From assembly GCA_964291285.2 (NCBI GenBank), contig OZ219788.1, positions 640,001 through 704,000 on the forward strand: 64,000 bases of DNA, in the 5' to 3' direction. Made by a program: the position numbers and the translations under genes. This document shows, piece by piece, positions 12,279 through 61,075 of the stretch. The stretch comes from Alphaproteobacteria bacterium (GTDB taxonomy: Bacteria; Pseudomonadota; Alphaproteobacteria; Bin95). Position 1 is the first letter of the stretch, and the number at the start of each line of letters is the position of its first letter. The notes beneath the pieces are model-generated. The model was not told the DNA's origin, did no database searches, and was given only the letters and a program-made list of their open reading frames with translations.

Positions 12279-13010
12279 CTAATAGCGCTTGCAAATTTCA
12301 TCAAGTTGGGACTGGATGACGAGCTCCTGACCCCACTCTGGACTGATCAGACGTGCGATTTTCAGGGCACAGATCCCAACTTGGACAGTTTCCTTCAGGT
12401 GTACGTCCAGCTTTGGCCCAACACCGTGAAGATGAACATAGGTTACTTCGTACTGATTCCCTTTACTTGAGGAATGCTCTATCGCGGAGCTCAGAAATAC
12501 GCCCCGTTCATTTGGGTGAGCACCATAGTCTATCGTCATATCGTATAGCCTTTTATAGATATTGCCCAAGGTAGCATCTGCTGCGGCGAGAGTATCAGAG
12601 ACCTTGCGGTGGGTGAACTCGGCGCGCACGGCCTTGCGCGTATCAGTATCGTCATGGCGGTTCAACCATCGCTTATATCGCTCGTGGTTGCCGTTGACGA
12701 AATAGCCGTAAGCCGCCAGCTCGAGACAGACTCGCAGCAAGCTTTGCGACTCGAACAATTGACCTGCCAGAACCGCGCCTGTAGCAGACAAATGGGCGCT
12801 GTGCGCTCGGGACAGAAACGACATCGGTAGTAATGCTTCTTCGTTGGAGATATGGCCTGGCAGACTCCGGAACATATTGTCGATAGCGATAAGGTCTTCA
12901 AATTGCGAACGCTTGTTTGCAAATGTCGCAAATTGGTTGGTCCGGCAATCGTCGAGATATTGCGACACGGGGTCCTGTCCCCATCCGGGCGGTGAATGCT
13001 GAGTGATCAT
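12279..13010 (-). CDS. Helical hypothetical protein, DUF5677/HEPN-like
   Basis: SLLRVCLELAAY and YKRLYDMTIDYGAHPN motifs. AT-richer codon usage. Start uncertain. Confidence 0.5.
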   Translation of the reverse strand: MITQHSPPGWGQDPVSQYLDDCRTNQFATFANKRSQFEDLIAIDNMFRSLPGHISNEEALLPMSFLSRAHSAHLSATGAVLAGQLFESQSLLRVCLELAAYGYFVNGNHERYKRWLNRHDDTDTRKAVRAEFTHRKVSDTLAAADATLGNIYKRLYDMTIDYGAHPNERGVFLSSAIEHSSSKGNQYEVTYVHLHGVGPKLDVHLKETVQVGICALKIARLISPEWGQELVIQSQLDEICKRY

Positions 13011-13193
13011 GATAAGTATTGTACACGCAATTCGTAGCTGCAACAGAGATTACGGAGAGCAGGGCTCGATCGCGGCTCGTGGCTGCCGGTATCGAAGAAC
13101 GCCGCGTCCTGAATGCCGACCGTCTCCACGGCGAGTGCACTCCCGCCGGATAGCGGAATCCCGGCTTTGCTGCGCGCAGGCATTGCGTTCGGT

Positions 13194-16100
13194 TCACCCG
13201 TTCGGCTTTTCGGCCCCGCTCAAGCGCAGGCCGGGGTTGGCGCTTTTCAGGATATCGTTGATGGATGCCGCCGTTTCGGCGTGCAGTTCGCCACCGTCCC
13301 CCAGCGTCATGCGAAGATGGAACCGCAAGGGGACGCCAGCGGCGGCAGTGATGACTTCCGGCAGCGCTTCGACCAGATCCTGCAACTCGTTGGGCGCAAG
13401 ATCGGCAGAGCCGATGTGCAGGCCCTTGCGAACCGACGCGGGTTCGCTGCCGCCGTCCTCGAAGCCGGCGGGTTCGGGTTCCTGCAGCATGACGGTTGCC
13501 GCACCTGCGGCCGGGCACGGCCAGGCGCCGCTTTCGGGCGCCAGGGCGAGCCACCGTCCGTCGAGCGCGTCGTTGATCGCCCGGCGCAGGATCGCCCAGG
13601 GCAGCGGTGCGCCGGCCTGCACCGAGAGCGCAGCGGAAAGGGCCAGGGCGCTGGCCTGTCCGTCTTTCCATGCCTCCGGCACCGAATCCTTCGTCAACCG
13701 GTTCACTGATAGCGGCGGCAAAGGCGCGCGCAGTTCGGCGGTGTCCGACAGGATGCCGGGCGGCAGCGTTTCGTCCTGGAAGCTTGCGGGGCCGTTCACG
13801 AGCCACAGCACACCCTGGCGGACGGCTTCCGCGACGGCTGCTTCGACGGCGGCGCGGGGACAGGCCGGAATACCGACCGGTTCCGCATAGCCCTCCCGCT
13901 GCACAGTTACCATCCGCCCGCCGGCGAAGTAGGCGGCGAGGTCCGCCACCGCGACGGAGGCGCCAGTCCACAGTTCCGGCAGCACATCCGGTGCCAGCGC
14001 CTGCGGGTCGAGTTCCGACAGCGTGGCCCTGTCGGGCAGGAACAGCTCCAATGCCGGATCCGACCGGGCCTGCTCGTCGACCGGCGTCCGCCACCAGGTT
14101 CTGACCGATCCGTCGGGCCTGACCAGCGACGCAACGAAGACGCCGTCGCGCACACCCCGGTCGATCGTGCCGAGGATATCCCTTCGCCGGAGCATCTTCG
14201 GCAGTTTCGGATTCTCCGCGAAGGCGCCGGCAATATCCTTCACGCGGCGCGATACCTCGTCGGCGCGCCAGAGATCGTAGGGGCCGCCGGGCAGCATCGC
14301 TTCGGCGCTGATCGCGGTCTCCTGGATGCGCGCACGCCGGTCCGCCTTGACGACCGCAAACAGCGGTTCCGCGCCGATGGTTGTCTTGAACGCCTGGATG
14401 TCGTTGTGCTCGTTGACGGCGACGACCATGGCCCAGGCTTGGCGGATCGCATCGGGGATGCGCTTGCGCGCTTTCTCCGTCGAGGCGGCGAGCATCCCTT
14501 CACGTACCGGATCGCCGCCCTGGCCGTCGAGCTGGCGGCGCACCTCCTCCCAGCCGAGATATTCGCGGATGCTTGCCCGGGCGGCGTCCAGGCCGTCGCG
14601 CGAAGGTACCGCCAGAACCACGGCGTTGCGTCGGATTCGCGGCCGGTCCGGCCCCGTCGTCTCGTCGATGAAGCGCCGCGCTTGCGCGCTCGGCCGGCCC
14701 GAATCGGAAACCGCGTCCGGCCCCAGGACGGCGAAATGGAACTCTCCGTCGTCGCCGATGTCGCGCGGCCGCTCCGGCAGCATGTGCACCCTTGCGCCTG
14801 CCGCCGCCGCACCCTGGGTGAGGCTCTTCGCCCGCCGCACCTCCTCCAGCAGCGCCTGTTCCACCTGCTCCGCCGCGACCCGGTTGGCGCAGGCGTCGTC
14901 ATGCATCTGCCTGAGGTTGGGCCTGTTGCCGAGACGCCACGCCCGGGGCAGCGTCGCGGCGTCGGCGAACTCCGCCTCGTCGAGGAACCAGGAGAGTTCG
15001 GTCCAGCGGCGCAGGCCCTTCTCGACATCGATCCGGTCCGGGCCTGCCGCGCCGACAAGAGCCATCAACTCCGGCGTATGCGCCTTCTGGCCGATAGGCT
15101 GCGAACTCAGGAACACGGCGCACACCGCCTGCTCCATTTCGCGGAACTTCAGCGCCGGGTGGTCGTCCTGCACGGCCCGCGCCTTCGCAAGCTCGCCCTC
15201 CAGCACAGCGCTCCACACATTGCCGGCGCCCTCCGTGACCTCGCGCGTGGCGGTGCCGGCAAGCTCGCGCGCCGCCTCGGAGAGAGCGTTTTCGCCGGGT
15301 GCGGGCAAAAGGACATTGGGGCCGACCAGCGGCGCCCTGTCCCACTTCTCGGCGTCGCGCAGCGCGATGGCGAAGGTCCTCAGGATGCCGCGCGTACGCT
15401 GGAACCCGTCCAGCTGGGTCCACTTGGCATAGAAAATATCGGTCAGCCCTGGATGGAAGGGGTAGCTGTCGAGGAAACGCTGTTCCTCGCCCGCCCTGTT
15501 CTTGCCGACCGTTTCGTCGACCCCGGCGATATTGGCGACCGCCGCCGTGACATGGGGGCGGAAGGCGTCGGGATCGGCGATCGAACCGGACTCGAAGAAG
15601 CGCCGGCGCAGCACTTCGGCCACATCCTCCTTCTGCACCGGCTGGATCCCCTCTTCGCGCTGCCGGTTGAAAATGTCGAAAATCTGCCGGGTCAGCTGCT
15701 TGCCGAGCGCGTCGCTCTTCGCGGGATCGGAGGCGAGCAGCGAGGCGACGAGGGCGCAGCGGTCCACCCTGACCGCCGCCTGGCACAGATACTGGAAGAA
15801 GTCGGTCAGCCGCGCATGCCAGCCCTCCTCCATCGCCGCCTTCTCGCGGGCATACATCAGCACTTCGTCGATCAGCACCAGGGTGGCGAGCCCGCTTGCC
15901 TGCGGCCGCGACAGCAGCTCGGCGAGCAGCGGCTCGGCAGGCGCCGTTTCCCGCTCCTCGTTCGCGCCGTCGGGATGAAGCGCGCGCAGGCCCTCCTCGC
16001 CCGCCAGCTGAAACGCCAGCACGCTCCAGGGATGCTTGAGCCAGCGCAGCCCGCTGCCGGGGCCGCGCACCTCCATGCCTTTTTCCACATCGAGCTTGTC

Positions 16101-16511
16101 GAAGCAGAGCGCCGCGACACGCGCCGCCGGCAGGGGTGCACCGACATGGGAGCGGAACTGCTCGACTGCCGGGAGCGTCGGCAACGACTGCGGATCGTGC
16201 GCCAAATGGTAGAGCGTCACCAGCGTATGGGTCTTGCCTCCGCCATAGGTAAGTTCGAGCTGGCGGATCGCTTTGGTGTTCCTGCCGGCGAGGCGCAGCG
16301 CCACGTCGCGCGCGAGTTCCCGCAACGGGAAGGTCGGATAGGTCAGCGCAAAGAACCGGCCCGGATCCTCATAGACCGGCCGCGCGCCCTTCTGCATCGC
16401 TACATCGTGAAGGTCGGCGGCAAAGTCGGCCAGCGAGAGCGCGCCCGTGCGCACATCCTCGCGCAGCGTCACGACCTCATGCCAGGGCGTCCGGGGTGGT
16501 CTTTGCGCCAT
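13194..16511 (-). CDS. DUF499 family AAA+ ATPase (system 1)
   Basis: PWHEVV.LREDV...FAADL...FFALTYPT, TYGGGKTHTL Walker A, LVLIDE Walker B, SYPFHP, FQRTRGILR. Confidence 0.9.
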   Translation of the reverse strand: MAQRPPRTPWHEVVTLREDVRTGALSLADFAADLHDVAMQKGARPVYEDPGRFFALTYPTFPLRELARDVALRLAGRNTKAIRQLELTYGGGKTHTLVTLYHLAHDPQSLPTLPAVEQFRSHVGAPLPAARVAALCFDKLDVEKGMEVRGPGSGLRWLKHPWSVLAFQLAGEEGLRALHPDGANEERETAPAEPLLAELLSRPQASGLATLVLIDEVLMYAREKAAMEEGWHARLTDFFQYLCQAAVRVDRCALVASLLASDPAKSDALGKQLTRQIFDIFNRQREEGIQPVQKEDVAEVLRRRFFESGSIADPDAFRPHVTAAVANIAGVDETVGKNRAGEEQRFLDSYPFHPGLTDIFYAKWTQLDGFQRTRGILRTFAIALRDAEKWDRAPLVGPNVLLPAPGENALSEAARELAGTATREVTEGAGNVWSAVLEGELAKARAVQDDHPALKFREMEQAVCAVFLSSQPIGQKAHTPELMALVGAAGPDRIDVEKGLRRWTELSWFLDEAEFADAATLPRAWRLGNRPNLRQMHDDACANRVAAEQVEQALLEEVRRAKSLTQGAAAAGARVHMLPERPRDIGDDGEFHFAVLGPDAVSDSGRPSAQARRFIDETTGPDRPRIRRNAVVLAVPSRDGLDAARASIREYLGWEEVRRQLDGQGGDPVREGMLAASTEKARKRIPDAIRQAWAMVVAVNEHNDIQAFKTTIGAEPLFAVVKADRRARIQETAISAEAMLPGGPYDLWRADEVSRRVKDIAGAFAENPKLPKMLRRRDILGTIDRGVRDGVFVASLVRPDGSVRTWWRTPVDEQARSDPALELFLPDRATLSELDPQALAPDVLPELWTGASVAVADLAAYFAGGRMVTVQREGYAEPVGIPACPRAAVEAAVAEAVRQGVLWLVNGPASFQDETLPPGILSDTAELRAPLPPLSVNRLTKDSVPEAWKDGQASALALSAALSVQAGAPLPWAILRRAINDALDGRWLALAPESGAWPCPAAGAATVMLQEPEPAGFEDGGSEPASVRKGLHIGSADLAPNELQDLVEALPEVITAAAGVPLRFHLRMTLGDGGELHAETAASINDILKSANPGLRLSGAEKPNG

Positions 16512-16731
16512 GTCGTCCTCGCTCGATGGGTTCAGGCGGCGTCGAGGCGCCGGGCGAGCGCGTCGGAGCCGTTGCGGCGCGCCCGGCGGGCCGTCAGATC
16601 GTTGTGCACGGATCGCGCAATTCCGAGGGCTTCCCGGCCGATGCAGGCTCGGCTTGCGGGGACTGCGCCTGCTCCAGCCGAATGGAATCCGCGATCGCCG
16701 CCTCCAGGCATCAATGAAATCGTGGTGCCCA

Positions 16732-17940
16732 TTATCGGGCGAAGAGGCGTACGACGAACCGCTCGCCGTCCTCGACGAGATCGGGTTCCGTTCCGTTGTG
16801 CTGCTTCATGCCGCGAACGATCTTTCTCGGCACTCCCATCCCCATATGCTCAAGATAGCCATAGTCCCGCATCACGTCCTTCAACAGCTGGTTTCGGGCG
16901 GCTCTGGTCCCGGCGCGCATGCGTTCGGTCGTTATGCCGTTGGGAAGCCTCCCGGGCGAGACGATCTCCAGCCGGTTTCGATATATTGCCAGTTCGATAT
17001 CCGTATTCGCCAGGAGATAGTCCCGGTGGATCAGGGCGTTCACGACAGCTTCGCGCACCGCTTCATCCGGATAGGCCGGGCGCTGCGCGCGGCGCGCGCC
17101 GTCCTTGAGGCCGCCGCCCACCGGCGTGTTGCGCCCGACGAACGCCAGCGCCTGCTCGACGAGGCCGGCTTCCAGAAGATTGCCCTTGCCGTCCATGAGG
17201 GGGGTCATCGGGCCGCGCAGCGTTTTCCGCTCAAGTGCCGCGTAGTCCTTTTCCAATCCGGGAAACGCCGCTGCATCGATGCCCGCCTGCGGCAGGAAGC
17301 GATTAGGCGCGGTCCCGAAGAGCAGCAGGCCTGAAAGGCTCGCGCTGCCCTCGACCATGATCTCCGTGTTGACCAGCAAGGTCCGCCAACCCGTTTCGTC
17401 GTCGTCAGCGGGGACATCCTGTTGACGGATCGACCTGAAATACTCTTCGAGCCGACGACGGTCCAGATCGCCGACAGCCGCCCCGTGCACCGGCCGCAGG
17501 TCGACGCGGAAGGCGCCTCGCTGCTGGAAGAGCCGGCTCAATTCCTGGGGCGTCGGCTCCCGGCTCTGCGTACCGACCCGGATGAAATAGGCGTTTCTGT
17601 TGTTGTGCCACTGGCTGTGCACATCGACACCGCGTGGCGCCCGCACGATCGCCACGTCAGCGCCGGGGCGCACCTCCCTGACTGTCTCGAAGAACGGGAT
17701 AATGCCCGGCCTGATCTTGTCCCGGCACGCAGTCATCACCCATTCCTCCAGACGGTCCCGCGTCAGCCCGACGACGGACCCGTCATCGTCCACACCGAGC
17801 AGGACCATGCCGCCTTCGAGGTTGGAGAATGCGACCAGTTCCCTGGCGAGATCGTGGTTTCGTACATCGTCGCGCTTGAACTCGACGCCGGAATTCTCGC
17901 CGTTCGCAATGATCTCCAGAAGCTCTGTCCGTGTCGTCAT
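16732..17940 (-). CDS. Schlafen/AlbA_2 domain + HATPase_c_4 protein
   Basis: GENSGVEFKRD...LVAFSNLEGGMVLLGVDDDG; REAVVNALIHRDY...RLEIVSPGRLP...RNQLL...GMGVP. Confidence 0.9.
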   Translation of the reverse strand: MTTRTELLEIIANGENSGVEFKRDDVRNHDLARELVAFSNLEGGMVLLGVDDDGSVVGLTRDRLEEWVMTACRDKIRPGIIPFFETVREVRPGADVAIVRAPRGVDVHSQWHNNRNAYFIRVGTQSREPTPQELSRLFQQRGAFRVDLRPVHGAAVGDLDRRRLEEYFRSIRQQDVPADDDETGWRTLLVNTEIMVEGSASLSGLLLFGTAPNRFLPQAGIDAAAFPGLEKDYAALERKTLRGPMTPLMDGKGNLLEAGLVEQALAFVGRNTPVGGGLKDGARRAQRPAYPDEAVREAVVNALIHRDYLLANTDIELAIYRNRLEIVSPGRLPNGITTERMRAGTRAARNQLLKDVMRDYGYLEHMGMGVPRKIVRGMKQHNGTEPDLVEDGERFVVRLFAR

Positions 17941-17942
17941 GC

Positions 17943-20669
17943 TCAGAACCCGTATTTCGAGCGGCGCATCTCGAAGGCGTTCCTGCCGCCTTCCAGCGTC
18001 TCCTCGACCAGTTCACGGACAGCTTCCGAGTCGATGGATCCCATATGCTCGGGCGCGATATTCGCTTGACCGCCGCCGGCCTCGCCGGACGCGGCGAGGC
18101 CGAGGATCAGTTCGGCGTCGCCGAGGACGGGAATGTTGGCGTTATGCGTCGAGAAAACGAACTGCCGCCGCCGCTTCTCGCGCCGCACGATCGGAACGAT
18201 CCTCTCGGCGATGAACCTGTTGTCGAGATCGTCTTCAGGCTGGTCGATCACCAGAGGCGCCTCGGCGTCGAGCAGCAGAAGCAGCAGGACCGCCGTCGCC
18301 TTCTGCCCCTTGGAGAGCGCTTCCAGCGGGCGCCATGCCTCCGGTTCGCCCTTGGGAGCCGTGTTCAATTCGATATGGGTTGTCGCGGGTAGTTCGAGCT
18401 CCTCGATTTTCATGTGCAGGTCCCGGCCGGCGTCGGCGATCCGTTCCGCAGCGCCCGGCGGGAGGTCGTAAGTCGAGATCAGGGAGTCCTTGCCTTCCCG
18501 GCAGCATTGCGAAAGCCCGGGCAGCGATAACGGGTCGGACTTGTGCAGGCGCTCAAGCGCGGCCGCAAGGTTTCCCCCGACGACCGTCCGAAGCAGATTT
18601 TCCAGAGGTTCGCGGTCGCCCGCCATTCTGACTTCGACCTTGACCTGCTGGCGGAGCTTGCCGTTTATCTCCTTCGCCGCCTTCGCCAGCGCACGATATT
18701 CCCGTGCCTTGATATCCTCCCATTCCGAAACCAGATCGCGGCGGTGCGCTTCGTGCATCTCCATATCCTTGCGGAGATGTTCCAGCCGGTCCTTCAGCGG
18801 GCGCAGATATTCGAGCTGCTTGCGCAGCTCGATGAATTCCGCGCCGTCGATGCCGGATTTCTGGTGATCGCGCAGCAGTTTTTCATACGCGCTTTCGATA
18901 GCGCCGCGCCGCTCGTCCCAGCGTTCCCGGATATCTGTAATCGCCGCATCGGCCTCGGTCAGGGCAGCGGCGAACCCGGCGCGGGCCTCGTCGAGCCGTG
19001 CGCCCAGGGTTTGCAGGACATCGCCCGTCTCGCGCAAGATATCCGCGTTCGGCAGAGAGGCCAGCGCCCTGGCGGAAACGAATGCGGCGTCGATGGGAAG
19101 ATCCTCCCCCAACGCCCTGAGCAACGCCCGAAAGGGTTCGAGCCGTTCGTCCAGAATCGAGAACAGCCGCTCCTCCCTGACGAGGAGGCTTCGCTCCCTG
19201 AACCGCTCTTCCAGCCCCGCTTCGCGAAAGCGCTTCTGTGTCTCTTCCAGGCCGGGCAGGGCGTCAAGCCGGGCCATCAATTCCTCGATTTCCCGCCAGG
19301 TTTCCACGATACGCAGGCGCGATTTCTCGAGCACCAACCTCATTTCCGCCTTGTGGGCCGAGAGCGATGCATCGCGTCCCGCACGGCGCTCGATAAAGCT
19401 TGTCAGTCTTTCCGGGCTCCCTGTCAGTTCGGAGATTTCGTGCTGGCCGAACACCTGCGCGCCCGGCATCAGCTCTCTCGGCGCCATGGCCAGCAGGTTG
19501 CCCGCATCGTCCCTGACGACCGGCGGATTGGGCACGGTGCGCTCGATTGCATAATGCGCTTCGGACGGGTGATGCGAGCGGACCAGAAGCGAGACCTTCG
19601 TTCCCGGTTTCAGGACATGCCTGACCGTCTCTTCATGCATCTTGCGCGCCTCGTCCCCCAGGGGGTCGAGGCCGAGCGCGTAGCGTATGCTCTCGATCAC
19701 CGTGGACTTGCCGGTGCCGCGGCCGCCGATCAACGTGTTGAGATTGCCGTTGAAGCGAACGGACACGCCGTCCAGAAACCCGCCTTCCCACGCTGCGGCG
19801 ACCAGTTCGGCATGGGGTTCAGACGGTGGGTCGCTGTGCAACCGGATTCGCGACCACGAATCGAGGAACGCCTGGCGGAATGCCTCGACCGAGACTTTCG
19901 ACATCTTGATGAAGCAGGATGCGCTGTCTTTCTCCAGATCCGCCGGGTCGTTGACATCCGAGGCGTTGACAACCGCTACCGCGCGGGTGCGCCGGTGCTG
20001 GGGATCCTTGTTCTCAAGGATTCGTCGGATCCCATCCGGCGCCTTCACGGTCGCTCCCGGCAGCGCGCAGGCAAGCAGATCCGGCGAGGTCCAGGCATTG
20101 ATCCGGGGCTGCCCGCTGAGGGTTTTCAGCAATCCGCCATTGGAAGCCACATGCGCGGCGATGGCGACCGCGCCCCACTCACGCGCCTTCGCCAGTAATT
20201 CAAGAGAGTCGAGGCTTCCCACGGGAGAAGCTGCGCTCGAATCGTGGACGCCGCAGTCCCCGATCACTCTTTCCAGCCTTGCTTCCTGCTCCGGGTCGAA
20301 AATGCAAAGGAAATGGACGCCGTCCTTCGTAACCGCCTCGAAGCCGGTGAACGCGAAAAGGCCGGCCTCGCGGCAGGCCCGCAAGAGCGCCCGGGACGTC
20401 TCGACGCGGTAGTGGTCGGTGACCGCCACGACTTCGATACCGGCCTTGCAACAAGCCCGGACGATCGCCGCATTGTAGTCCGCCTCCGAACGGAAGTTGG
20501 TCGATTTGCCGTGGCGCTCGAGATAGGCGAACGGATTGACCTGCAGGGCGCAGCGGTAGAAGCGCGCGCCGTTCGGCAGCAGCCGGGCGGCTTCCAATGG
20601 CTCGGATCCTGCAATTGTCGGACTGGTCGCCGCCTTCGTCTTGCGTTGTCTCTCGCCGCTGGTGCGCAT
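17943..20669 (-). CDS. PHP-domain + ABC/SMC-like ATPase fusion (Ppl/TrlF-like)
   Basis: PHP-like AVTDHY, GFE...VHFLCIF, AAHV, NASD. ATPase GGRGTGKS, coiled coil, LSKGQK, LVIDQPEDDLD, STHNAN. Confidence 0.85.
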   Translation of the reverse strand: MRTSGERQRKTKAATSPTIAGSEPLEAARLLPNGARFYRCALQVNPFAYLERHGKSTNFRSEADYNAAIVRACCKAGIEVVAVTDHYRVETSRALLRACREAGLFAFTGFEAVTKDGVHFLCIFDPEQEARLERVIGDCGVHDSSAASPVGSLDSLELLAKAREWGAVAIAAHVASNGGLLKTLSGQPRINAWTSPDLLACALPGATVKAPDGIRRILENKDPQHRRTRAVAVVNASDVNDPADLEKDSASCFIKMSKVSVEAFRQAFLDSWSRIRLHSDPPSEPHAELVAAAWEGGFLDGVSVRFNGNLNTLIGGRGTGKSTVIESIRYALGLDPLGDEARKMHEETVRHVLKPGTKVSLLVRSHHPSEAHYAIERTVPNPPVVRDDAGNLLAMAPRELMPGAQVFGQHEISELTGSPERLTSFIERRAGRDASLSAHKAEMRLVLEKSRLRIVETWREIEELMARLDALPGLEETQKRFREAGLEERFRERSLLVREERLFSILDERLEPFRALLRALGEDLPIDAAFVSARALASLPNADILRETGDVLQTLGARLDEARAGFAAALTEADAAITDIRERWDERRGAIESAYEKLLRDHQKSGIDGAEFIELRKQLEYLRPLKDRLEHLRKDMEMHEAHRRDLVSEWEDIKAREYRALAKAAKEINGKLRQQVKVEVRMAGDREPLENLLRTVVGGNLAAALERLHKSDPLSLPGLSQCCREGKDSLISTYDLPPGAAERIADAGRDLHMKIEELELPATTHIELNTAPKGEPEAWRPLEALSKGQKATAVLLLLLLDAEAPLVIDQPEDDLDNRFIAERIVPIVRREKRRRQFVFSTHNANIPVLGDAELILGLAASGEAGGGQANIAPEHMGSIDSEAVRELVEETLEGGRNAFEMRRSKYGF

Positions 20670-52774: not shown

Positions 52775-53157
52775 CCGAGAAGGTCAAGCATCTTGAACTC
52801 ATTCAAGGCGTGGTCAATCGCCTTGCCACAAACTCGTTCCGTATCAAGGGATGGACCGTCATCCTCGTGTCGGCGCTTCTCGTTCTACTCGTCCGGGAAG
52901 GCCGGACCGATCTCGCCTGGGTCGGCTTCGTCCCGGTGTTCGTCTTCTGGGGGCTTGACGGCTACTTCCTGTGGCAGGAGCGACGGTTTCGCGATCTTTA
53001 CGATCATGTCCGCGTGCTGCAGAAGGATGATACAGACTTCTCGATGGATACCTCGGCGTTTCGCCGCCCCTGGCTTGGCGCGGTATTTTCGATCACCTTG
53101 TGCCCGTTCTATCTTGCATTGGCCATTTCGGTCGCTGTCGCCCTGTTGCTCGGATAA
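52771..53157 (+). CDS. Small multi-pass membrane protein, putative TIR-partner effector
   Basis: KHLELIQGVVNRLATNSFRIKGW...FWGLDGYFLWQERRFRDLY; three or more hydrophobic segments; ATGA-coupled to the helicase. Confidence 0.75.
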   Translation: MTEKVKHLELIQGVVNRLATNSFRIKGWTVILVSALLVLLVREGRTDLAWVGFVPVFVFWGLDGYFLWQERRFRDLYDHVRVLQKDDTDFSMDTSAFRRPWLGAVFSITLCPFYLALAISVAVALLLG

Positions 53158-53181
53158 TCAGGTACAAGGAGATATGACACC

Positions 53182-53670
53182 ATGAAACGCCGCGTGTTTT
53201 ACAGCTTTCACTACGATCGGGACTCTTGGAGAGCCGCCATGGTGAGAAACATCGGAGCCCTGGACGGGAATGAACCAGCTACCGACAATGACTGGGAGAA
53301 GGTCAAGAGGGGTGGCGACCTCGCTATCAAGAGATGGATTGCCGAACAGATGGAAGGCCGCACATGCTGCGTTGTTCTGGTAGGGTCAAGAACTGCCAAT
53401 CGAAAGTGGATTAATTACGAGATCATCAAGGCATGGAACAAGGGTATGGGTCTGGTTGGCATATGCATACACGGTTTGAAAGACCGTGAGGGGCACATCT
53501 CTTCAAAGGGCAATAATCCGTTCGATTACATCACCTATCGGGGCACAAAGTTATCGTCTATTGTAAAGCGCTACGATCCACCAGGAAACAGCCGCGAACG
53601 CTATAACTGGATCGCTGAGCACCTTGCGAATGCGGTTGAGGAGGCCATCCGGATTCGGAATGGACAATAA
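53182..53670 (+). CDS. TIR-domain protein, ThsB/DUF1863 (MTH538-like)
   Basis: RRVFYSFHY..DSWRA, IKRWI, VVLVGSRT..RKWINYEI (catalytic-position Glu). Confidence 0.9.
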   Translation: MKRRVFYSFHYDRDSWRAAMVRNIGALDGNEPATDNDWEKVKRGGDLAIKRWIAEQMEGRTCCVVLVGSRTANRKWINYEIIKAWNKGMGLVGICIHGLKDREGHISSKGNNPFDYITYRGTKLSSIVKRYDPPGNSRERYNWIAEHLANAVEEAIRIRNGQ

Positions 53671-53703: not shown

Positions 53704-56685
53704 ATGATCCCCCGGGGATGCAAGCGTCTGGCTGAGGTGGATTTTCCGATCGCGGCGGTGTCGCGCCATGCGGTGCGCGAGAAGTCGATCCGCCACGGCC
53801 ATCCCTCGACGCTGCATCTGTGGTGGGCGCGGCGGCCTCTGGCCTCCTCGCGGGCCATGCTCCTGGCGCTCCTGTTCCCGGACCCCTGCGATCCCGAATG
53901 TCCGGACGACTTCAAGGAAGCGGCGCGCAAGGCTCTGCCGGCGGTCGGTTGCGGGCGCGGCGAAACCGATGCGGATATCCGGCGCGGCCTGCTGAAGTTC
54001 ATCGCAGACTTCGCCAACTGGGACCTCAGCACAAAGCTACCTTGGCTGGAGGCGGGCCGAGCGCTCGTCAGGGCCGCCCATGGAGAAGAACCGCCCCTGG
54101 TGGTGGATCCGTTTGCCGGCGGCGGGTCGATCCCGCTGGAGGCACTGCGGCTCGGCTGCGAGGCGTTCGCGAGCGATCTCAACCCCGTGGCCTGCCTCAT
54201 CCTCAAGGCGATGCTCGAGGACATTCCGCGCCACGGCCCGGAATTGGCCGACGAGCTGCGCAAGGCTGGCGCGGAAATCAGGCGGCAGGCCGAACGGGAA
54301 CTGTCCGACCTGTATCCGGCCGACCCCGACGGCGCGGTGCCCATCGCCTATCTGTGGGCGCGCACGGTGCGCTGCGAGGCGCCGGACTGCGGCGCCGAAA
54401 TCCCGCTCATGCGCTCCTTCTGGCTGTGCCGGAAGGCGAAGCGCAAGCGCGCCTTGCGCCATGCCGTCGAACGGGTCGAGGGAGCGCCGCCGCGGGTGGC
54501 GTTCGAAGTGTTCGAACCCGTGGCCGAAAGCGAGGTGCGCGGCGGCACGGTGACGCGCGCCAGGGCGACCTGCCTGTGCTGCGGCGCGGTCCTGCCGCCG
54601 GAGCGCGTGCGCGCGCAACTCGCCGCCCGGCGCGGCGGCGCGGATGTGGTTTTCGACGAGACCGGCAACCGGGCCGGCGGGGCGCGGATGACGGCGGTGG
54701 TGACCCTCCGGCCGAACGAGGCGGGACGGCACTATCGCCTGCCGACGAAGGCCGACTACGCCGCGGTCCGGGCGGCACAGGCGCGGGTTGCCGGAATCCT
54801 GGAAGACTGGGAGCGCGGCGGCAAGCAGGGGTTGTGTCCCATACCGGATGAACCCCTGCCGCCCATAGGCACGTTGGGCTTCCGCGTCCAGCGCTACGGG
54901 ATGCTCCGGTGGGGCGACCTGTTCACCGCTCGGCAGAAGGCGGCTTTATACTCGGTCGCTTCGAAAATCGCGAAAACCAATACCCGGGCAATCTCGGGAA
55001 TAGTGTCGCTAGCGCTGGGGAAGTTGGCAGATCTTGGGAATGCTGGTGCACCATGGAAGCCGGATGCGGAGTGTCCAGTGCACATGCTTTCTAGTCAGAA
55101 AATCCCACCATTTTGGGATTGGACAGAATCGTTACCCTTCGGAGAAAGCAGCGGCTCTTTCTTTTCTTCATTTGACCGTAGCGCCCATACGCTTGGCGCT
55201 GCTTTCTCTATTCCATTTCCTACCACCGGAACAGTTCAGTTAGCCGACTCTGCGATTCACCCACTGCCCGACCAAACTACCAATATCTGGTTCACCGATC
55301 CGCCATACTACGATGCCATTCCCTACTCGGATCTCTCCGACTTCTTTCTGGTCTGGCTGAAACGCAGTCTACCCGATCACTTTCTTCTTCGGGACCCCTT
55401 CGATCCTGAAAATCCCCTCTCACCCAAGACACGCGAAGCGGTGCAGGACGAAACGAAGGAGACCGACGGTCGATCCAAGGACCGCGAATGGTTCGAAGAC
55501 ACGATGGGAAAGGCCTTCGCCGAGGGGCGGCGCGTTCTCGCCGAGGACGGCATCGGATCGGTCGTGTTCGCCCACAAGACCACCGAAGGCTGGGAAGCCC
55601 TGCTCTCCGGCATGATCCGGGGCGGCTGGACCATCACGGGTTCCTGGCCGATCGCAACGGAAATGGGATCTCGCCTCCGCGCCCGGGACTCCGCCGCCCT
55701 CGCGACCAGCGTCCACCTTGTCTGCCGCCCGCGCCCGGCGGATGCCCCGGTTGGCGAGTGGGCCGAGGTGCTCAAGGAACTGCCCCTGCGGGTTGCCGAC
55801 TGGATGGCGCGCCTGCAAGGCGAAGGCGTGCGGGGCGCCGATCTCGTCTTCGCCTGCATCGGCCCCGCCCTGGAGATCTTCAGCCGCTGCCGCGCCGTCG
55901 AGACGGCGGAGGGCCAAACGGTCAGCCTGTCGACATATCTGGAGAAGGTCTGGGAAGTGGTAGGCCGCGCCGCCCTCGAACAGGTGCTCGGCACGGCGGA
56001 GGCCGCCGCCCGCAACGGCATGACCGGCGCGCTGGAGGAAGACGCCCGCCTGTCCGCCCTCTTCCTGTGGGCGTTTCAGGGGACGAACGAATTGCGGGAC
56101 AGTGGACCGGACGATTCCGCGGCCTCCGAACCGGACGACACCCTCGAAGAAGAGGTCGCCAGGGCGACCGCCGGGGGATTCCGCTTGCCGTTCGATGTCG
56201 TGCGGCGCTTCTCCCAGCCCATGGGCATCGACCTCGACCGTTGGACAGGGCGGGTAATTGCCCAGGAGAAAGGCATCGTCCGCCTGCTCCCGGTTGCGGA
56301 ACGCGCAAAGACGCTGCTTGGCGCCGACGGTGCCCGCAGCGTCCCCGAATGGATCGAGGCCGGCGCAAGTGCCGACGCGCAGCCAACGCTGTTCTCCGAG
56401 CTTGACCCGGCGCCGGACGCCTCGCGGCCCGAGCGGGCGGGGCGCAACGGTTTCGACCCGGATTCCGACCTGCAATCGCCGGATGCGACCGTCCTGGACC
56501 GGGTTCATACGGCGATGCTGCTCCAGACGGGCGGGCATTCGAACGCCTTGCGTCGATTGATCGTTTCCGAACAGGAGCGCGGACCGGACTTCCTGCGCCT
56601 CGCCAACGCGCTTTCCGCCCTCTACCCGCGCGGCAGCCGCGAGAAGCGGGTTCTGGACGCCATGCTGCTGGCGGCGCCGAGGTGA
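53704..56685 (+). CDS. DUF1156 family adenine-specific DNA methyltransferase (system 2)
   Basis: EKSIRHGHPSTLHLWWARRPLA, VDPFAGGGSIP, AYLWARTVRC, TDPPYYD. Confidence 0.92.
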   Translation: MIPRGCKRLAEVDFPIAAVSRHAVREKSIRHGHPSTLHLWWARRPLASSRAMLLALLFPDPCDPECPDDFKEAARKALPAVGCGRGETDADIRRGLLKFIADFANWDLSTKLPWLEAGRALVRAAHGEEPPLVVDPFAGGGSIPLEALRLGCEAFASDLNPVACLILKAMLEDIPRHGPELADELRKAGAEIRRQAERELSDLYPADPDGAVPIAYLWARTVRCEAPDCGAEIPLMRSFWLCRKAKRKRALRHAVERVEGAPPRVAFEVFEPVAESEVRGGTVTRARATCLCCGAVLPPERVRAQLAARRGGADVVFDETGNRAGGARMTAVVTLRPNEAGRHYRLPTKADYAAVRAAQARVAGILEDWERGGKQGLCPIPDEPLPPIGTLGFRVQRYGMLRWGDLFTARQKAALYSVASKIAKTNTRAISGIVSLALGKLADLGNAGAPWKPDAECPVHMLSSQKIPPFWDWTESLPFGESSGSFFSSFDRSAHTLGAAFSIPFPTTGTVQLADSAIHPLPDQTTNIWFTDPPYYDAIPYSDLSDFFLVWLKRSLPDHFLLRDPFDPENPLSPKTREAVQDETKETDGRSKDREWFEDTMGKAFAEGRRVLAEDGIGSVVFAHKTTEGWEALLSGMIRGGWTITGSWPIATEMGSRLRARDSAALATSVHLVCRPRPADAPVGEWAEVLKELPLRVADWMARLQGEGVRGADLVFACIGPALEIFSRCRAVETAEGQTVSLSTYLEKVWEVVGRAALEQVLGTAEAAARNGMTGALEEDARLSALFLWAFQGTNELRDSGPDDSAASEPDDTLEEEVARATAGGFRLPFDVVRRFSQPMGIDLDRWTGRVIAQEKGIVRLLPVAERAKTLLGADGARSVPEWIEAGASADAQPTLFSELDPAPDASRPERAGRNGFDPDSDLQSPDATVLDRVHTAMLLQTGGHSNALRRLIVSEQERGPDFLRLANALSALYPRGSREKRVLDAMLLAAPR

Positions 56686-56811
56686 CGCCATGACGCCCCG
56701 GATCGCCGAACGACAATCCCCGGGCCTGTCGGCGCCGCGAGACCGGGCCGGCGGCGGGCTTCATCCGGCGGGGCCGGGAACCAGGGAACGTAATCGAAGG
56801 AGGACAGGATC

Positions 56812-57069
56812 ATGACGGAAGAAACCGAACTGCTGGACCGTATCACCGTGCGGGCCGATATCTTCGGCGGCAAGCCGATCATCCGCGACATGCGCATCGC
56901 GGTGGAGCATGTGCTGGGCAAGCTGGCGGCGGGAGACAGTGCGGAAAGCATCCTCGACGAGTATCCGTTTCTCGAGCCCGAGGATATCCGGGCCTGCCTG
57001 GTCTTCGCCCATCGTTCGCTGGCCGGCGAGCGTGTCCATGACCGCATTTCCGTGCGACAGGCTTCGTGA
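56812..57069 (+). CDS. DUF433 family antitoxin-like protein
   Basis: RIT...IFGGKPIIRDMRIAVE...ILDEYPFLEPEDIRACL. Confidence 0.9.
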   Translation: MTEETELLDRITVRADIFGGKPIIRDMRIAVEHVLGKLAAGDSAESILDEYPFLEPEDIRACLVFAHRSLAGERVHDRISVRQAS

Positions 57070-57440
57070 AGTTTCTTCTCGATGTCTGCGTGGCGTCGCG
57101 CATCCTGCACCGGACCCTGATCGATCTCGGGCACGATGTGCTGTCCGCCCGCGACGGACATGCGAACGCCTCGGACGAGGCGCTGCTCGCCATCGCCCGC
57201 CGCGAAGACCGGGTGCTGGTCACCGAGGACAAGGACTTCGGCGAGCTTGTCTTTCTGCGCGGCCTGCCGCATCCGTGTATCGTTCGGCTCGACGGGTTGA
57301 CGGCCATGGAGGAAGCGGCAGTCATGCGGGACCTGATCGAGCGCCAGGGCGCTGCAATGCGCAAGGGTGCCATTATCGTGGTCACCGGAAGGCGCGTGCG
57401 GATACGGCCGGCGGGAAATGTCGAGAGCGGCAATGACTAG
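57066..57440 (+). CDS. DUF5615 PIN-like (VapC45-type) toxin
   Basis: MKFLLD...GHDV...SDEALL..A..EDRVLVTEDKDFGEL; GTGA overlap with the DUF433 gene. Confidence 0.88.
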   Translation: MKFLLDVCVASRILHRTLIDLGHDVLSARDGHANASDEALLAIARREDRVLVTEDKDFGELVFLRGLPHPCIVRLDGLTAMEEAAVMRDLIERQGAAMRKGAIIVVTGRRVRIRPAGNVESGND

Positions 57441-60236
57441 GCATCCCTGGCACAAGGTCGTCACGCCCCGGCAGGAGGTGCGGGAAGGGCGCTCCTTCAG
57501 CCCGGACGAATTCGCCATCGCGCTGGAACAGGTGGTTGTCGGCACGGCGCCGCCCGACTACCGCGACCCGGCGCAGTTCTTCTCGCGCACCTGCTTCACC
57601 CGTGCGCTGACAGACCATGCCGGCATGGTGCTGCGCCGCCTCGCCGGCGCAACGCAGAACACTTCGCCGGTGCTTACCCTCGTCACCCAGTTCGGCGGCG
57701 GCAAGACCCATACCTTGACGGCGCTCTACCATCTCGCCAACGCCGGCAACGGGGTTGCAAGCCTGCCGGGCGTGTCCGGTCTGCTTGCGGCGGCAGGCGT
57801 TTCAAGCCTTCCCGAAGCGCGGGTCGGGGTGTTCGTGGGCAATGCCTGGGATCCCTCCGAAGGCCGCGAGACGCCGTGGATCGACTTGGCCCACCAGCTT
57901 GCCGGAGACCGGGGCGTCGCCGCCCTCGGAACGGCGGCGAAGACCACGCCGCCCGGGACCGAGGCTCTCGGCCGGGTGTTCGCCGCCGCAGAGGCGCCCG
58001 TGCTGCTGCTCTTCGACGAGGTCCTGAACTTCGTCAACCGCCATCGCGACCGGGCCGAGAGCTTCCACGCCTTCATCCAGAATCTGACGGTCGCCGTTAC
58101 GGGGGCCGCCGGGGCGGCGGCGGTCATCAGCCTACCGCGCAGCCAGGTGGAGATGACGGACTGGGACCGCCAATGGCAGGACCGCATCACCAAGGTGGTG
58201 CGCCGCGTCGCCCGCGACCTGATCGCCAATGACGAGGCCGAGATCGGCGACGTGGTGCGTCGGCGGCTGTTCGAGGACCTCGGCGACGAGCGGATACGCA
58301 AGCGAGTTTCGAAGACCTGCGCGGACTGGTGTTTCGAGCGGACCGCCCGCCTGCCTTCAGAATGGATGTCCGTGGACAGTGCGACCACAGAGACCAGGGC
58401 GCGCGAGTTTCTGAGGCGCCGGTTCGAGGCCTGCTATCCCTTCCACCCTTCGACGCTCTCCGTCTTCCGGAGGAAATGGAGCGCGCTTCCCCAGTTCCAG
58501 CAGACCCGCGGTACGCTTGCCATGCTGGCCCAGTGGATCTCCTGGGCGGCGCGCCAGCACTTCCGGCAGGCGCGGACGGAGCCGTTGATCACGCTCGGTT
58601 CGGCGCCGCTGCATGTGCCGGAGTTCCGCGCGGTCGTGCTCGGCCAGTTGGGCGAGCAACGGCTCGATGTGGCGATAGCCGCCGATCTTGTGGGCGACAC
58701 GGCCCATGCCCGCGCGCTGGATGCCGACACGAAAGGGGCGCTGCGCGACATTCACCGCCGGGTCGGCGCGGCCATCCTGTTCGAGTCTTCCGGCGGGCAG
58801 GTAGAGAAGGTGGCGCACCTTCCCGAACTGCGCTTCGCCCTGGGCGAACCCGAGGTGGATACCACGTCCGTCGACAATGCGGCCGGGGCGCTGGAAGCGG
58901 CGGGGTTCTTCATCCGCAAGATCGGTACGGACGGTTTCCGCATCCATCACCAGGCGACCCTGAAGAAGGTCGTCAGCGACCGCCGCGCCGCGCTCGACGA
59001 AGACACGGAAATCCGGCCGGCGATCCGCAAGCTGGTGAAGGAAGAATTCGACCGGGGCGCCAGTTTACCGGTCGTTGCCTTCCCGGAAGACGGCGCCGCC
59101 GTTCCGGACACGCCGCGCCTTGCGCTGGTCGTCGTCGACCCGGAGGCGGAGTGGCAGCCCGGCCAAGGCGCCGCGGAGCGGATTGCGCTATGGACAAGGC
59201 AGCGAGGCGCTTCGCCGCGGCTTTATCCCGCCTCCCTGGTCTGGTGCGTCAGGAAGCCGGGGCGCGAACTCAGGGAACGCGCGGAGCTGTGGCTCGCCTG
59301 GCAGCGGGTCTCCCGCGAAGTGGCCGAAGGCGTGCTCGGCACGGAGTTCGACCGGGCGGACCGGGACGAGGTGCGGACCAAGGTCAGGGACGCGGAAAAC
59401 GCAGCGCGGGACGAGGTGTGGGGCGGCTACCGCTTCGTGGCGCTCGCCGACGCCAGGGCCGAGACCGGACTCAAGACCATCGATCTCGGCGCGGGGCACA
59501 GCAGCGCCAGCGAGACGCTCTGCGGCCGCGTGATCACGGCGCTCAGGACCGAAGCACTGCTCAACGAATCCGTAGGCGCGGGCTATCTCGACCGCCACTG
59601 GCCGCCGGCCTTGAGGGAAAGCGGGGCCTGGCCGCTTACCGGCCTGCGCCAGAGCTTTCTCGACGGGTCGCTGACCCGGCTCGTCGATCCGGATGCCGTC
59701 CTGCGCCGCAAGATCGTCGAATTTGTCGCGAACGGCGACTTCGGCCTCGCATCGGGCACGATGGCGGACGGCGGGTACGGACGGATCTGGCACGCCGAGC
59801 CGGTCGGGGCGGAGGAAGTTGCGTTCGAACCGGACGTGTTCCTGTTGACCAGGGCCCGCAGCGAGGAGATTCGGGCGGTGGAAGCGCCCGGGCTGCAAAC
59901 GGCGCCAGACGCCGATGTACCAGACGCCGATACGCCGATACACCGACGCCTCCCAAACCCGGCCCCGATGCCGCGCAGGAGCCCGGGACTGAAAACGAAC
60001 CGCGCGGAAACGCCCCCCCGGTCCGATTGCGCCTGGCTGGAGTCGTACCGCCGGAAGTCTGGAACCGTCTCGGCACGAAGGTCGTTCCCAGGCTGCGGGC
60101 CGGCAAGGGGCTTGTCGTGGAGGTGAAGTTCGAAGCCGAGATTCCAGCAAACGCTCTCGCCGCCATGGAAGACGACCTCCGGCGAACACTGGAAGACCTG
60201 GACCTGGGGGATACAGTCCGTATCGAACGGCTATAG
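57433..60236 (+). CDS. DUF499 family AAA+ ATPase (system 2), frameshifted at ~59930 in a short repeat
   Basis: PWHKVVTPR, TQFGGGKTHTL, LLFDE, YPFHP, FQQTRG. Main frame stops at 60126. The family-like C-terminal domain (LRLAGVVPPEVWNRLGTKVVP...LEDLDL) is in another frame ending at 60236. Confidence 0.88.
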
Positions 60237-60305
60237 GCGCTGGCGGGTGGAAACGGTCGCTCGGGGAATATCGCCGTCCTGCAAGCTCTCCGGCGAGGAA
60301 ACAGT

Positions 60306-61075
60306 TCAACCCGCAACACCGGAAACATAGGATGGCTTTCTGGCATCCACGATTCGCATAAGGTGGTTCCCAGCATGATGACTTCCATGGCCTCCTGCGG
60401 ATCGTTCATGTGAACGTCGCGATGGGAATTCGGGTTCTTGTATGCGCCGATCGCCCCAGAGAAAAGCTGCATTCGTGCTGCCTTTTCATCCTTTCCCATA
60501 TCCATGTCGGTCAGAACCCCTCCCTCGGGTTTGAATGCTTCCTGCATGAGAACGCGGCCGATACAAGTATCAGGGAGGCGGGTGGCTTCCCGGACGAAAA
60601 CTTCGACGCCCTTCATGGCTTGAAATACGGCGACATCGAAGTCACCACGGACGAATGCACACCACACCTTGTCCGCAATCCGGGGATGGAGAACCTCTTT
60701 TGGGAGAATTCGCGCAACTCTGGAGTTTGCAAATTCCGTTTCATCTTCGTATTGATGTGCCCGTCGACTCAGGATGCGGAAACCGTGTTGACCATTCCTG
60801 TCAGGGCTCGGGATGAGCATCCCCTGCGCCTCCAGCCATGCCCAAGCCTCACAAATGGCGACCTTTATCTCTTCTTCGTGTTCCTCGACAGACCAAAAAT
60901 CGGATACGCGGTTTCCAGTTACTGTCATGCCGTTCAAGAAATTGCCAAGATGCACCGACTTGTCGCCTTTCTTGATCCGTCGACGCAGCACAAACAACAG
61001 CTTCGCGCCGAGTTCCTCCGGTTCCAGGGCCAGAAACTGTTCAGTATCTGGTATTCTTTCCGCGAGTTCCCGCAT
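60306..61075 (-). CDS. TIGR02391 (Ymh-like) family protein, 1-nt frameshift near C-terminus
   Basis: EAWAWLE..G, LHPRI, AVFQAMKGVE..VR, LFSGAIGAYKNPNSHR. The expected end NHLMRIVDA is out of frame at ~60368. Confidence 0.75.

Follow-up and report, generated by a model that had tools for sequence, protein, structure and literature searches.

Two deeply diverged Hma (Type-1 BREX-related) operons in an alphaproteobacterial genome very probably carry self-contained defence and toxin-antitoxin modules between their core genes

Introduction

The closest described relatives of the locus reported here are the Hma systems, which were named by Payne et al. in 2021 (PMC8565338). A later preprint (Payne 2024, 10.1101/2024.01.29.577857) counts 931 of 1,485 Hma systems (62.7%) as having embedded genes, with 376 distinct cassettes and nine candidates tested. 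The PDC candidates came from applying the same approach to BREX, DISARM and type I systems. The Discussion of the preprint takes up genomic-sink, selfish-linkage, PrrC-type guard and co-regulation explanations. We have analysed 64,000 nucleotides (nt) from an alphaproteobacterium (assembly GCA_964291285.2, lineage Bin95, contig OZ219788.1, positions 640,001 to 704,000), in the following called the window and numbered from its first letter. It very probably holds two separate, deeply diverged Hma (Type-1 BREX-related) operons, system 1 and system 2, carrying self-contained defence and toxin-antitoxin modules between their core cistrons. We call the junction between hmaA and hmaB slot 1, that between hmaB and hmaC slot 2, and the genes found there cargo.

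The loci were renamed Type-1 BREX-related by Rakesh & Krishnan in 2026 (PMC12839542), who catalogued nested nuclease effectors, the Schlafen type included. The window shares with their loci the tripartite core of DUF499 ATPase, DUF1156 N6-methylase and helicase-restriction endonuclease, as well as nested Schlafen-histidine-kinase-like, PIN and OLD-ABC modules, which are termed backup effectors there. Their paper covers nuclease effectors and the word TIR has 0 occurrences in its text; the TIR pair and the solo UvrD helicase of the window are not covered there. The first core protein of system 1 begins with an XRE-type helix-turn-helix, whereas a TUDOR domain is described at that end in PMC12839542.

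In Halomonas meridiana, HmaA alone defends by means of its nuclease domain (PMC11232893); the same paper gives ~66.5% as the share of hma loci with insertions. The Halomonas system is similar to those of the window in that its hmaA has Snf2 and NOV_C domains and in that Septu, PARIS or Ppl occur between hma genes, and the AAA_21 ATPase with an unannotated partner between its hmaB and hmaC matches the commonest slot-2 content among the relatives of system 1. The cargo of the window is different (UvrD, TrlF and Schlafen, PDC-M50, DUF433/DUF5615), and this locus is known from its sequence alone.

PrrC is an anticodon nuclease inside the EcoprrI type I restriction operon. Together with BrxU in BREX it is cited in the Discussion of Payne 2024 (10.1101/2024.01.29.577857), and like the cargo of the window both are effector genes within a restriction-type operon. 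Functional coupling has been demonstrated for them, in that they back up or complement the surrounding system, whereas here it is only possible and the cargo is scattered on the core trees.

The two operons resemble the Hma systems of Payne 2024 in their three core families, in the order of these and in the nested genes on the same strand. Nested ABC/OLD ATPases, GmrSD-like proteins, Ppl and HEC-07 are likewise common to that survey and to the loci analysed here, and PDC-M50, present in system 2, is a candidate of the same group, defined from genes embedded in defence systems. The original prediction for this stretch had put forward an undescribed architecture. The architecture is already in print (Payne 2024; PMC11232893; PMC12839542), as is the guard reading discussed below, and since it has been published and used as 'guilt by embedding', no new class is opened here. 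A recombination-anchor mechanism and the difference in G+C content (GC) between cargo and cores did not turn up in word searches of the main text of the 2024 preprint, which found none of the terms recombination, hotspot and GC content.

The two Hma operons

The operons lie on opposite strands, system 1 at 13194-29448 on the minus strand and system 2 at 49370-60236 on the plus strand, in DNA of ~68% G+C. As predicted, both have the gene order HmaA (SNF2 helicase and NOV_C/DUF3883), HmaB (DUF1156 methylase), HmaC (DUF499 ATPase), which is borne out by Pfam and PADLOC. The core genes are (aa, amino acids):

25894..29448, minus strand: HmaA1, SNF2 helicase with N-terminal XRE-type helix-turn-helix and C-terminal NOV_C/DUF3883 nuclease-like domain (PADLOC HmaA 3.2e-153, residues 75-1141)
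20671..23892, minus strand: HmaB1, DUF1156 N6-adenine-type DNA methylase, 1073 aa (PADLOC HmaB 3.7e-112; Pfam DUF1156 6.4e-18; motifs FAGGG and DPPY)
13194..16511, minus strand: HmaC1, DUF499 AAA+ ATPase, 1105 aa (PADLOC HmaC 8e-72; Pfam DUF499 1.5e-15; motifs GGGKT and LVLIDE)
49370..52774, plus strand: HmaA2, SNF2 helicase with NOV_C/DUF3883, 1134 aa (PADLOC HmaA 2.1e-166; also by Pfam and motifs)
53704..56685, plus strand: HmaB2, DUF1156 methylase, 993 aa (PADLOC HmaB 7.4e-105; motifs FAGGG and DPPY)
57433..60236, plus strand: HmaC2, DUF499 ATPase (PADLOC HmaC 3.8e-93); the open frame stops at 60126 and the homologous C-terminus is at 60236

The best PADLOC models for the six core proteins are HmaA, HmaB and HmaC, with matches near full length in both operons, which agrees with the prediction that such modules belong to a BREX-related defence family. 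HmaA1 also matches Helicase_C, NOV_C, HTH_3 and SNF2-rel_dom in Pfam, and has the motifs GAGKT, DEAH, QRMGRIHR and E-x-K. The catalytic motifs are intact in all six proteins: helicase I/II/VI, the nuclease-like E-x-K, FxGxG and DPPY of the methylase, and Walker A and B of the ATPase, the latter in HmaC1 and HmaC2 alike. The start of HmaB1 was picked by alignment to HmaB2. Following the rule in the Methods of Payne 2024 (10.1101/2024.01.29.577857), by which an Hma system has each core gene once, on one strand, with at most three genes between neighbours, both operons qualify, with 1 + 2 nested genes in system 1 and 2 + 2 in system 2.

The original prediction had called the operons twins. They are of the same family but not close kin: since their core proteins are just 33% (HmaA), 33% (HmaB) and 28% (HmaC) identical, the two operons appear to be old, separate lineages within one family and not the outcome of a recent duplication. 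The helix-turn-helix of HmaA1 (residues 12-47, 29343-29448; 8.1e-9) has no counterpart in HmaA2; it seems to be conserved in the system-1 subfamily, the relatives of which align to HmaA1 from the first residues.

Nested genes and their junctions

The nested genes of system 1 are:

23960..25894, minus strand: UvrD/GajB-like helicase in slot 1, 644 aa (Pfam UvrD-helicase 1.6e-38 and UvrD_C; PADLOC GajB 1.2e-46; GC 0.533)
17943..20669, minus strand: TrlF-family/Ppl-like ABC-type ATPase, first gene in slot 2, 908 aa (NCBIfam TrlF_fam_ATP 2e-139; PADLOC Ppl 5e-38)
16732..17940, minus strand: Schlafen AlbA_2 and HATPase_c_4 protein, second gene in slot 2, 402 aa (Pfam SLFN_AlbA_2 1.2e-16, HATPase_c_4 3.6e-21)

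Those of system 2, with the pair at its head, are:

48654-48893, plus strand: Phd/YefM antitoxin (Pfam PhdYeFM_antitox 3.3e-11)
48912-49361, plus strand: PIN toxin (Pfam PIN 2.1e-13)
52771..53157, plus strand: PDC-M50A membrane protein, first gene in slot 1, 128 aa with three hydrophobic stretches (PADLOC PDC-M50A 4e-45, residues 1-125; GC 0.565)
53182..53670, plus strand: ThsB-like TIR protein, PDC-M50B, second gene in slot 1, 162 aa (Pfam ThsB_TIR 1.4e-27; PADLOC ThsB 2.5e-67; GC 0.511)
56812-57069, plus strand: DUF433 protein in slot 2 (Pfam 3.2e-22)
57066-57440, plus strand: DUF5615 PIN-like protein in slot 2 (Pfam DUF5615 7.4e-19)

The predicted UvrD helicase in slot 1 of system 1 and the predicted DUF433/DUF5615 genes in slot 2 of system 2 were thus both found by Pfam. 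A PHP-domain ATPase and a Schlafen-HATPase protein had been proposed for slot 2 of system 1, and both genes are there, but the PHP domain of the former is weak, with an E-value of 0.007 and a score of 17 bits where the cut-off is 26.4. This protein belongs to the TrlF family, scoring 467 bits against the TrlF_fam_ATP cut-off of 350, and falls short of the Ppl_antiphage equivalog with 161 bits against 1000. A Gabija pair was not found in system 1, as the UvrD protein matches GajB while GajA gives only weak matches in the operon, to the ATPase motifs of the TrlF protein (7.4e-5).

In slot 1 of system 2 a transmembrane and a TIR protein had been predicted. Once the frame of the membrane protein is corrected to 52771-53157, replacing 52793-53185, the two match the PDC-M50 candidate, the TIR protein being PDC-M50B at 1e-63 over residues 1-160 of 162, and the pair is complete, with A and B adjacent on one strand. 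In spite of the ThsB_TIR match it does not make a Thoeris system, as no ThsA-type gene was found among the operon genes, to which the search for ThsA was confined. The two putative type II toxin-antitoxin pairs of system 2 have the order small antitoxin gene, then PIN-type toxin gene, with a gap of 18 nt between Phd and PIN and a GTGA overlap between DUF433 and DUF5615. The Phd/PIN pair, which was absent from the original prediction, is part of the repeated unit described below, its PIN stop codon 8 nt ahead of the ATG of HmaA2.

The cargo was predicted to be tightly coupled to the cores, and this holds for six junctions and not for the others. The start of UvrD overlaps the stop of HmaA1 (TAATG), HmaB1 and TrlF are 1 nt apart and TrlF and Schlafen 2 nt, HmaA2 overlaps the membrane gene (ATGA), DUF433 and DUF5615 overlap as given above, and DUF5615 overlaps HmaC2 by 8 nt. 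The looser junctions across both operons measure 24, 33, 67 and 126 nt, the first of these between the membrane gene and the TIR gene, and 220 nt precede hmaC1. There is no overlap between UvrD and HmaB1, the true HmaB1 start at 23892 being 67 nt past the UvrD stop.

Two genes had been regarded as distal cargo:

12279..13010, minus strand: 243-aa neighbour gene of system 1, no family match of its own (GC 0.514)
60338..61075, minus strand (ATG at 61075): TIGR02391/Hypoth_Ymh gene, convergent with system 2 (Pfam PF09509 7e-24; NCBIfam TIGR02391 1e-15)

The 243-aa protein, which had been likened to DUF5677, has no match in Pfam or NCBIfam even at E<=1, and none in PADLOC; PF18928 is found in just 4 of its 67 homologues, and the likeness to DUF5677 runs through such relatives only. 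Its gene lies ~180 nt past HmaC1, outside the repeated 17-kilobase (kb) unit of system 1, and occurs at this copy only. The TIGR02391 gene was taken for co-transcribed cargo of system 2, which it is not, because it lies on the minus strand; it is also frameshifted.

Copies within the genome

The assembly (6.13 Mb, 5 contigs, 4.77% estimated contamination) has nine DUF1156 methylase matches, four of system-1 type, three of system-2 type and two of further types, at C2:239587, C5:383283, C4:693743, C3:1433942, C3:2205721, C4:663701, C4:790624, C2:403908 and C5:224051. For a single defence family so many copies are unusual. The proteins of the four system-1-type copies are 99-100% identical. System 1 is contained in a 17-kb unit (13154-30146) that is repeated at 99.6% identity on C3 and partly at two contig ends, and its cargo is always identical in kind.

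System 2 is contained in a ~13-kb unit (48593-61747) with two further copies, on C2 and C5, at ~97% identity. These copies keep Phd/PIN, DUF433/DUF5615 and the TIGR02391 gene but are without the membrane-protein and TIR pair; instead the stop of their hmaA overlaps the start of hmaB (ATGA). At this place the window has 952 nt (52748-53699) against their 52 nt, and a different HmaA tail. Contigs from public runs (three runs of one study) cover the TIR pair and show the cassette-free junction as well as both forms of a 1-nt difference in the TIGR02391 gene; in run X1 the extra G of that gene is present at a contig depth of 437/899.

HmaB2 differs sharply from its sister copies in a well-bounded patch ahead of the DPPY motif (54945-55257), where 71 of 150 residues are identical to C2/C5 compared with 45-50 of 50 elsewhere. 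As the patch resembles an exchanged target-recognition segment, the copies may methylate different sites. Both repeated units are bounded by insertion sequences, which suggests that whole defence operons have been duplicated by way of these elements.

Relatives of the two systems

Scanning one genome per species with HmaB1 gave 80 loci, 54-88% identical and each with at most 10 kb of flank per side, from metagenome-assembled genomes titled as several phyla. Slots were counted in the 68 in which hmaA, hmaB and hmaC are complete, ordered and on one strand; the other 12 were omitted (core missing, contig-end cut or disordered). Slot 1 ranges from 85 to 8586 nt with a median of 3097 and is below 300 nt in 3 of the 68, slot 2 from 4 to 8358 nt with a median of 1888 and below 300 nt in 8. 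Both slots are empty in none of them (0/68). In this the system-1 subfamily, with at least one filled slot in 68/68, differs from the survey of Payne 2024 with its 62.7%.

The contents are varied. The 453 open reading frames (ORFs) in the slots fall into 269 clusters. OLD/GajA-type ATPases account for 46 ORFs, spread over 36 loci and in many cases accompanied by a 205-aa partner, and complete GajA and GajB pairs occupy slot 1 of loci L019, L032 and L065. Further cargo includes a C5 methylase with an HATPase-nuclease protein, short pAgo with SIR2-APAZ, long pAgo, a CBASS cyclase with 2TM, and Dsr2, and also GajB, HEC-07, GmrSD-like proteins, KAP NTPases, AbiJ-like proteins, HEPN/MNT, PIN, Zeta, RES and five transposases. 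In a minority of loci the cargo of the window itself is found again in its own slot, UvrD in L002, L023 and L024, and TrlF with Schlafen in L017, L018, L035 and L037. The closest relative, L005, has cores 93/88/92% identical to those of system 1 and no cargo in common with it; nucleotide homology between the two extends to 25898, 23917-20688 and 16565-13113, that is, to the gene ends plus leaders of 25-54 nt.

The original prediction had proposed that homologous operons be tabulated and the genes between the cores tested for enrichment in defence genes. In this test PADLOC matches (E<=1e-5) were found for 46 of 127 slot representatives as compared to 15 of 115 control ORFs (Fisher p=3e-5). The controls were ORFs of at least 150 aa, a size limit that disfavours a difference, and came from nine arbitrarily chosen stretches of the genome to which the window belongs; 127 were drawn, and 115 were scanned after the 12 of stretch L090 were left out. 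The control is conservative because the genome is overall rich in defence genes, and the control stretches L081-L084 themselves match Mokosh MkoC, DISARM DrmC, DarT/DarG and several methylases.

For system 2, an HmaB of its type was found in 6 of 401 genomes searched within the class, with these slot contents:

G013: core identity ~76%; slot 1 with the same membrane protein and TIR pair; slot 2 with DUF433/DUF5615 and one extra gene
G275: hmaA 93% identical; slot 1 empty; slot 2 with DUF433/DUF5615
G113: slot 1 empty; slot 2 with other genes, 1.0 kb
G210: slot 1 with other genes, 2.8 kb; slot 2 with other genes, 2.2 kb
G155: slot 1 with other genes, 1.8 kb; slot 2 empty

Phd/PIN is retained alongside the operon in C2, C5 and G275. 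The cargo of system 2 is in part long-lived and in part lost between near-identical copies. A PDC-M50-like pair with a TIR protein 69% identical is also found in G210 away from that genome's own system-2-type Hma, at 9765-10655 of L109 (G210:C1:624200-644199), in a pocket of 0.47-0.51 GC within DNA of 0.70 GC.

Composition and turnover of the cargo

Several cargo genes are AT-richer than the cores, as had been predicted. The cores have a GC of 0.67-0.71, while UvrD, the membrane gene, TIR, the 243-aa gene and the TIGR02391 gene are all at 0.51-0.57, and TrlF and Schlafen are at 0.639. Among the relatives, 64 of 65 filled slot-1 cases and 55 of 57 filled slot-2 cases have slot DNA of lower GC than the cores, the median gaps being -0.086 and -0.068. 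This is not a sign of recent arrival, because UvrD orthologues that are as diverged as their cores keep the gap (GC 0.53-0.59 against 0.68-0.73, 11-19 points lower). The membrane-protein and TIR pair of G013 likewise has 0.54-0.58 as compared to 0.65-0.67 in its cores. The AT-richness of the cargo is general and persistent and no mark of recent arrival.

Turnover was followed on FastTree trees, with cargo states taken from our own ORF picking and clustering, by which degraded copies are missed (the UvrD of L002, for instance, was seen by tblastn and not as a single ORF). On the HmaB tree of 69 tips slot 1 has 57 distinct contents and needs at least 60 changes, slot 2 has 40 contents and needs at least 48. 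Single cargo families need about one change per carrier on all three core trees, a comparison from which seven further loci with truncated core translations were excluded: UvrD, with 7 carriers, needs 7 changes, where shuffling gives 6.8 on average. A modest phylogenetic signal is confined to the slot-2 OLD ATPase (12-16 changes vs 20.4) and the slot-1 C5 methylase (5-6 vs 8.5).

Exchange is also seen between near-identical cores. L076 and L077, on one contig of one record and so a second instance of two Hma copies within a genome, have cores 98/100/97% identical and differ only by a 343-aa slot-1 gene of no known family; the cargo-free L077 has an ATGA overlap between HmaA and HmaB, and in the filled L076 both the tail of HmaA and the start of HmaB are different. 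Together with L005 and the C2/C5 copies this bears out the prediction that slot cargo is exchangeable. Judged from these comparisons, the cargo appears to turn over far faster than the cores diverge, and the slots appear to be cistron junctions at which an insert replaces the last HmaA codons and re-creates the coupling.

Surroundings of the operons

Between the operons (30245-46825) lies an unrelated type I secretion cluster with three RTX-repeat proteins, an ABC exporter, an HlyD-type adaptor, a TolC-type channel and an M23 peptidase, inside which there is an IS630-type element at 41190-42398. A 119-aa frame upstream of HmaA1 (29545-29904) matched no family in the domain searches, NCBIfam included, and is probably not a gene. 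The flanks on both sides are rich in insertion sequences. A 2.5-kb element at 535-3027, with at least 10 near-identical copies in the genome, encodes a 598-aa protein (1152-2948, minus strand) that joins a Druantia DruA domain (2.1e-19) to DDE transposase domains. An IS21-type element (IstA/IstB, 5215-9263) has at least 20 copies at >99% identity, and beside it, at 9264-11900, is a repeated element of 1.4-2.8 kb that encodes a YAcAr/SLOG-domain protein and has some 20 copies, 83-97% identical.

Discussion

We consider it very likely that the window carries two separate, deeply diverged Hma operons with self-contained modules between their core cistrons. Going by the families, HmaB would mark host DNA by adenine methylation, HmaC, an ORC/Cdc6-like ATPase, would recognise unmarked DNA, and HmaA would translocate on it and cut with its C-terminal PD-(D/E)xK-type domain. 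The nested modules (UvrD/GajB-like; TrlF/Ppl-like with Schlafen; PDC-M50; DUF433/DUF5615; Phd/PIN) would most likely be extra layers of defence, independent or loosely coupled, that ride on the transcription and translation of the operon by overlapping or near-abutting stop and start codons. Their exchange would take place by insertion or deletion of a replacement type, filtered by selection for an intact operon.

Several observations weigh against this picture. The scores for the NCBIfam equivalogs are far below the cut-offs, 81 and 80 bits against 1200 for DUF499_antiphage and 158 and 187 against 1000 for DUF1156_antiphage, and the cores of the window, although related to these groups, fall outside them, in another subfamily than that behind the models. 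The restriction-modification logic of Hma is itself not established, since HmaB methylation could not be shown to protect phage T4 (PMC11232893). System 2 of the window may furthermore be crippled: compared to its sister copies, where both genes are intact, HmaC2 has 23 extra bases near 59909-59945 (local repeats of 15 and 8 nt), by which the frame of its last ~95 residues is shifted, and a 1-nt deletion after 60369 removes the stop of the TIGR02391 gene. The 23-base difference is not in the difference tables of the public-run contigs, which neither back nor contradict it. The sister copies could also be alleles of co-existing strains instead of paralogues, given the five contigs and the contamination estimate of the assembly. 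Not all cargo is mobile, as G013 retains both the TIR pair and DUF433/DUF5615 in the same slots at ~76% core identity. Lastly, the scan for promoters gave 1 promoter-like site per operon (shuffles 2.1 and 1.4) and the scan for terminators fewer sites than shuffled sequence (6 vs 12.4 and 7 vs 10.8), with neither kind in an intergenic gap on the operon strand.

It is conceivable that the nested effectors are guards, which are held inactive by the Hma core or sense it and act as an abortive second line once an anti-restriction protein disables the core, as PrrC does. The translational coupling seen at the junction overlaps would fit such a role, and so would the effector types, which are typical of abortive systems (TIR, Schlafen, PIN-like, ABC/OLD-type ATPases); the idea has been proposed for embedded systems in the Discussion of Payne 2024 (PrrC, Ocr-PARIS, BrxU) and in PMC12839542. 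However, no cargo family tracks the core on any of the three trees, and the sister copies on C2 and C5 manage without the TIR pair. Furthermore, dozens of unrelated modules are found with one and the same core, and this speaks against specific contacts between proteins. We therefore regard guarding as a tentative possibility, on the whole doubtful for these operons.

The original prediction had the conserved core genes acting as recombination anchors. In such a model homologous recombination in conserved parts of hmaA (3' end), hmaB (both ends) and hmaC (5' end) would carry cassettes between Hma operons. The edges of the slots do fall where conserved coding sequence ends, slot 1 is directly adjoined by the NOV_C domain and the DUF1156 motif, and filled copies have a foreign HmaA tail, as though it had been brought in with the cassette. 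Recombination within cores also occurs, as is seen in the mosaic patch of HmaB2 between flanks of ~97-100% identity, and the history of HmaB is the least congruent of the three, the same nearest neighbour being found for 47 of 62 tips between the HmaA and HmaC trees, 38 between HmaA and HmaB and 35 between HmaB and HmaC. But edges at gene ends are equally expected from selection for intact cores after any insertion or deletion. A search for donor-recipient pairs gave none: the identity of the cargo exceeds that of each of the three cores by more than 15 points in only 4 of 667 pairs, which are all modest cases, and falls short by more than 15 points in 246 of 667, a comparison in which recent cassette transfers could be missed as one genome per species was sampled. 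Around the TIR pair the identity of the flanks stays at 97.1-97.8% as far as the junction, without any stretch of other divergence, L076/L077 are alike in this, and for slot-1 cargo the HmaA tree gives no better fit than the HmaB tree. The operons contain no recombinase, and when the surroundings of the cassettes and the ends of the 17-kb unit were searched for repeats, the matches were all short, imperfect and GC-rich, and the slot edges had none. The anchor mechanism is thus unlikely.

Integron-type platforms are similar to the Hma operons in offering defined positions in an operon-like array with interchangeable promoter-less genes. They differ in that the Hma operons have no integrase in or beside them and no attC-like or other flanking repeats, and in that the inserts replace the ends of the flanking genes.

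The nested genes might instead be integral subunits of new Hma subtypes and needed for function. Slot 2 does hold an OLD-type ATPase in 32 of 69 tips, in many cases together with the 205-aa partner, and DUF433/DUF5615 is kept in 4 of 7 system-2-type loci (window, C2/C5, G275, G013). The closest relatives of each system, however, hold different genes or none in the same slot, the modules are known as stand-alone systems or candidates, and in Halomonas HmaA defends alone (PMC11232893), so we find this improbable. Just as improbable is a bolder picture, in which the core would be an obligate two-slot carrier whose junctions, the stop/start overlap of hmaA and hmaB and the leader between hmaB and hmaC, are hit by a dedicated exchange process and filled from a phyla-crossing, persistently AT-rich pool of cassettes, some of them guards of the core. 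That the multi-copy operons, the cassette difference and the frameshifts are artefacts of assembly or binning is very improbable, for in spite of the 5 contigs, the estimated contamination and the two system-1 copies that stop at contig ends, the operon layout is repeated in 68 independent records, the public-run contigs cover the TIR pair, the cassette-free junction and both 1-nt forms, and the copies differ by 0.4-3% instead of being identical.

The two Hma operons with their nested modules are of interest in three respects. The same operon, ~97% identical, is present with and without the PDC-M50 pair and with an exact junction, which is a ready-made design for testing whether a module depends on its host system. 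The turnover measure indicates essentially no correlation between cargo and core phylogeny, even where the cores are 97-100% identical. The compositional gap between cargo and core is general and persists in orthologous cargo. The PDC-M50 junction, the turnover and the GC gap all bear on a published question, whether embedding in a defence operon reflects a functional partnership or a permissive landing site.

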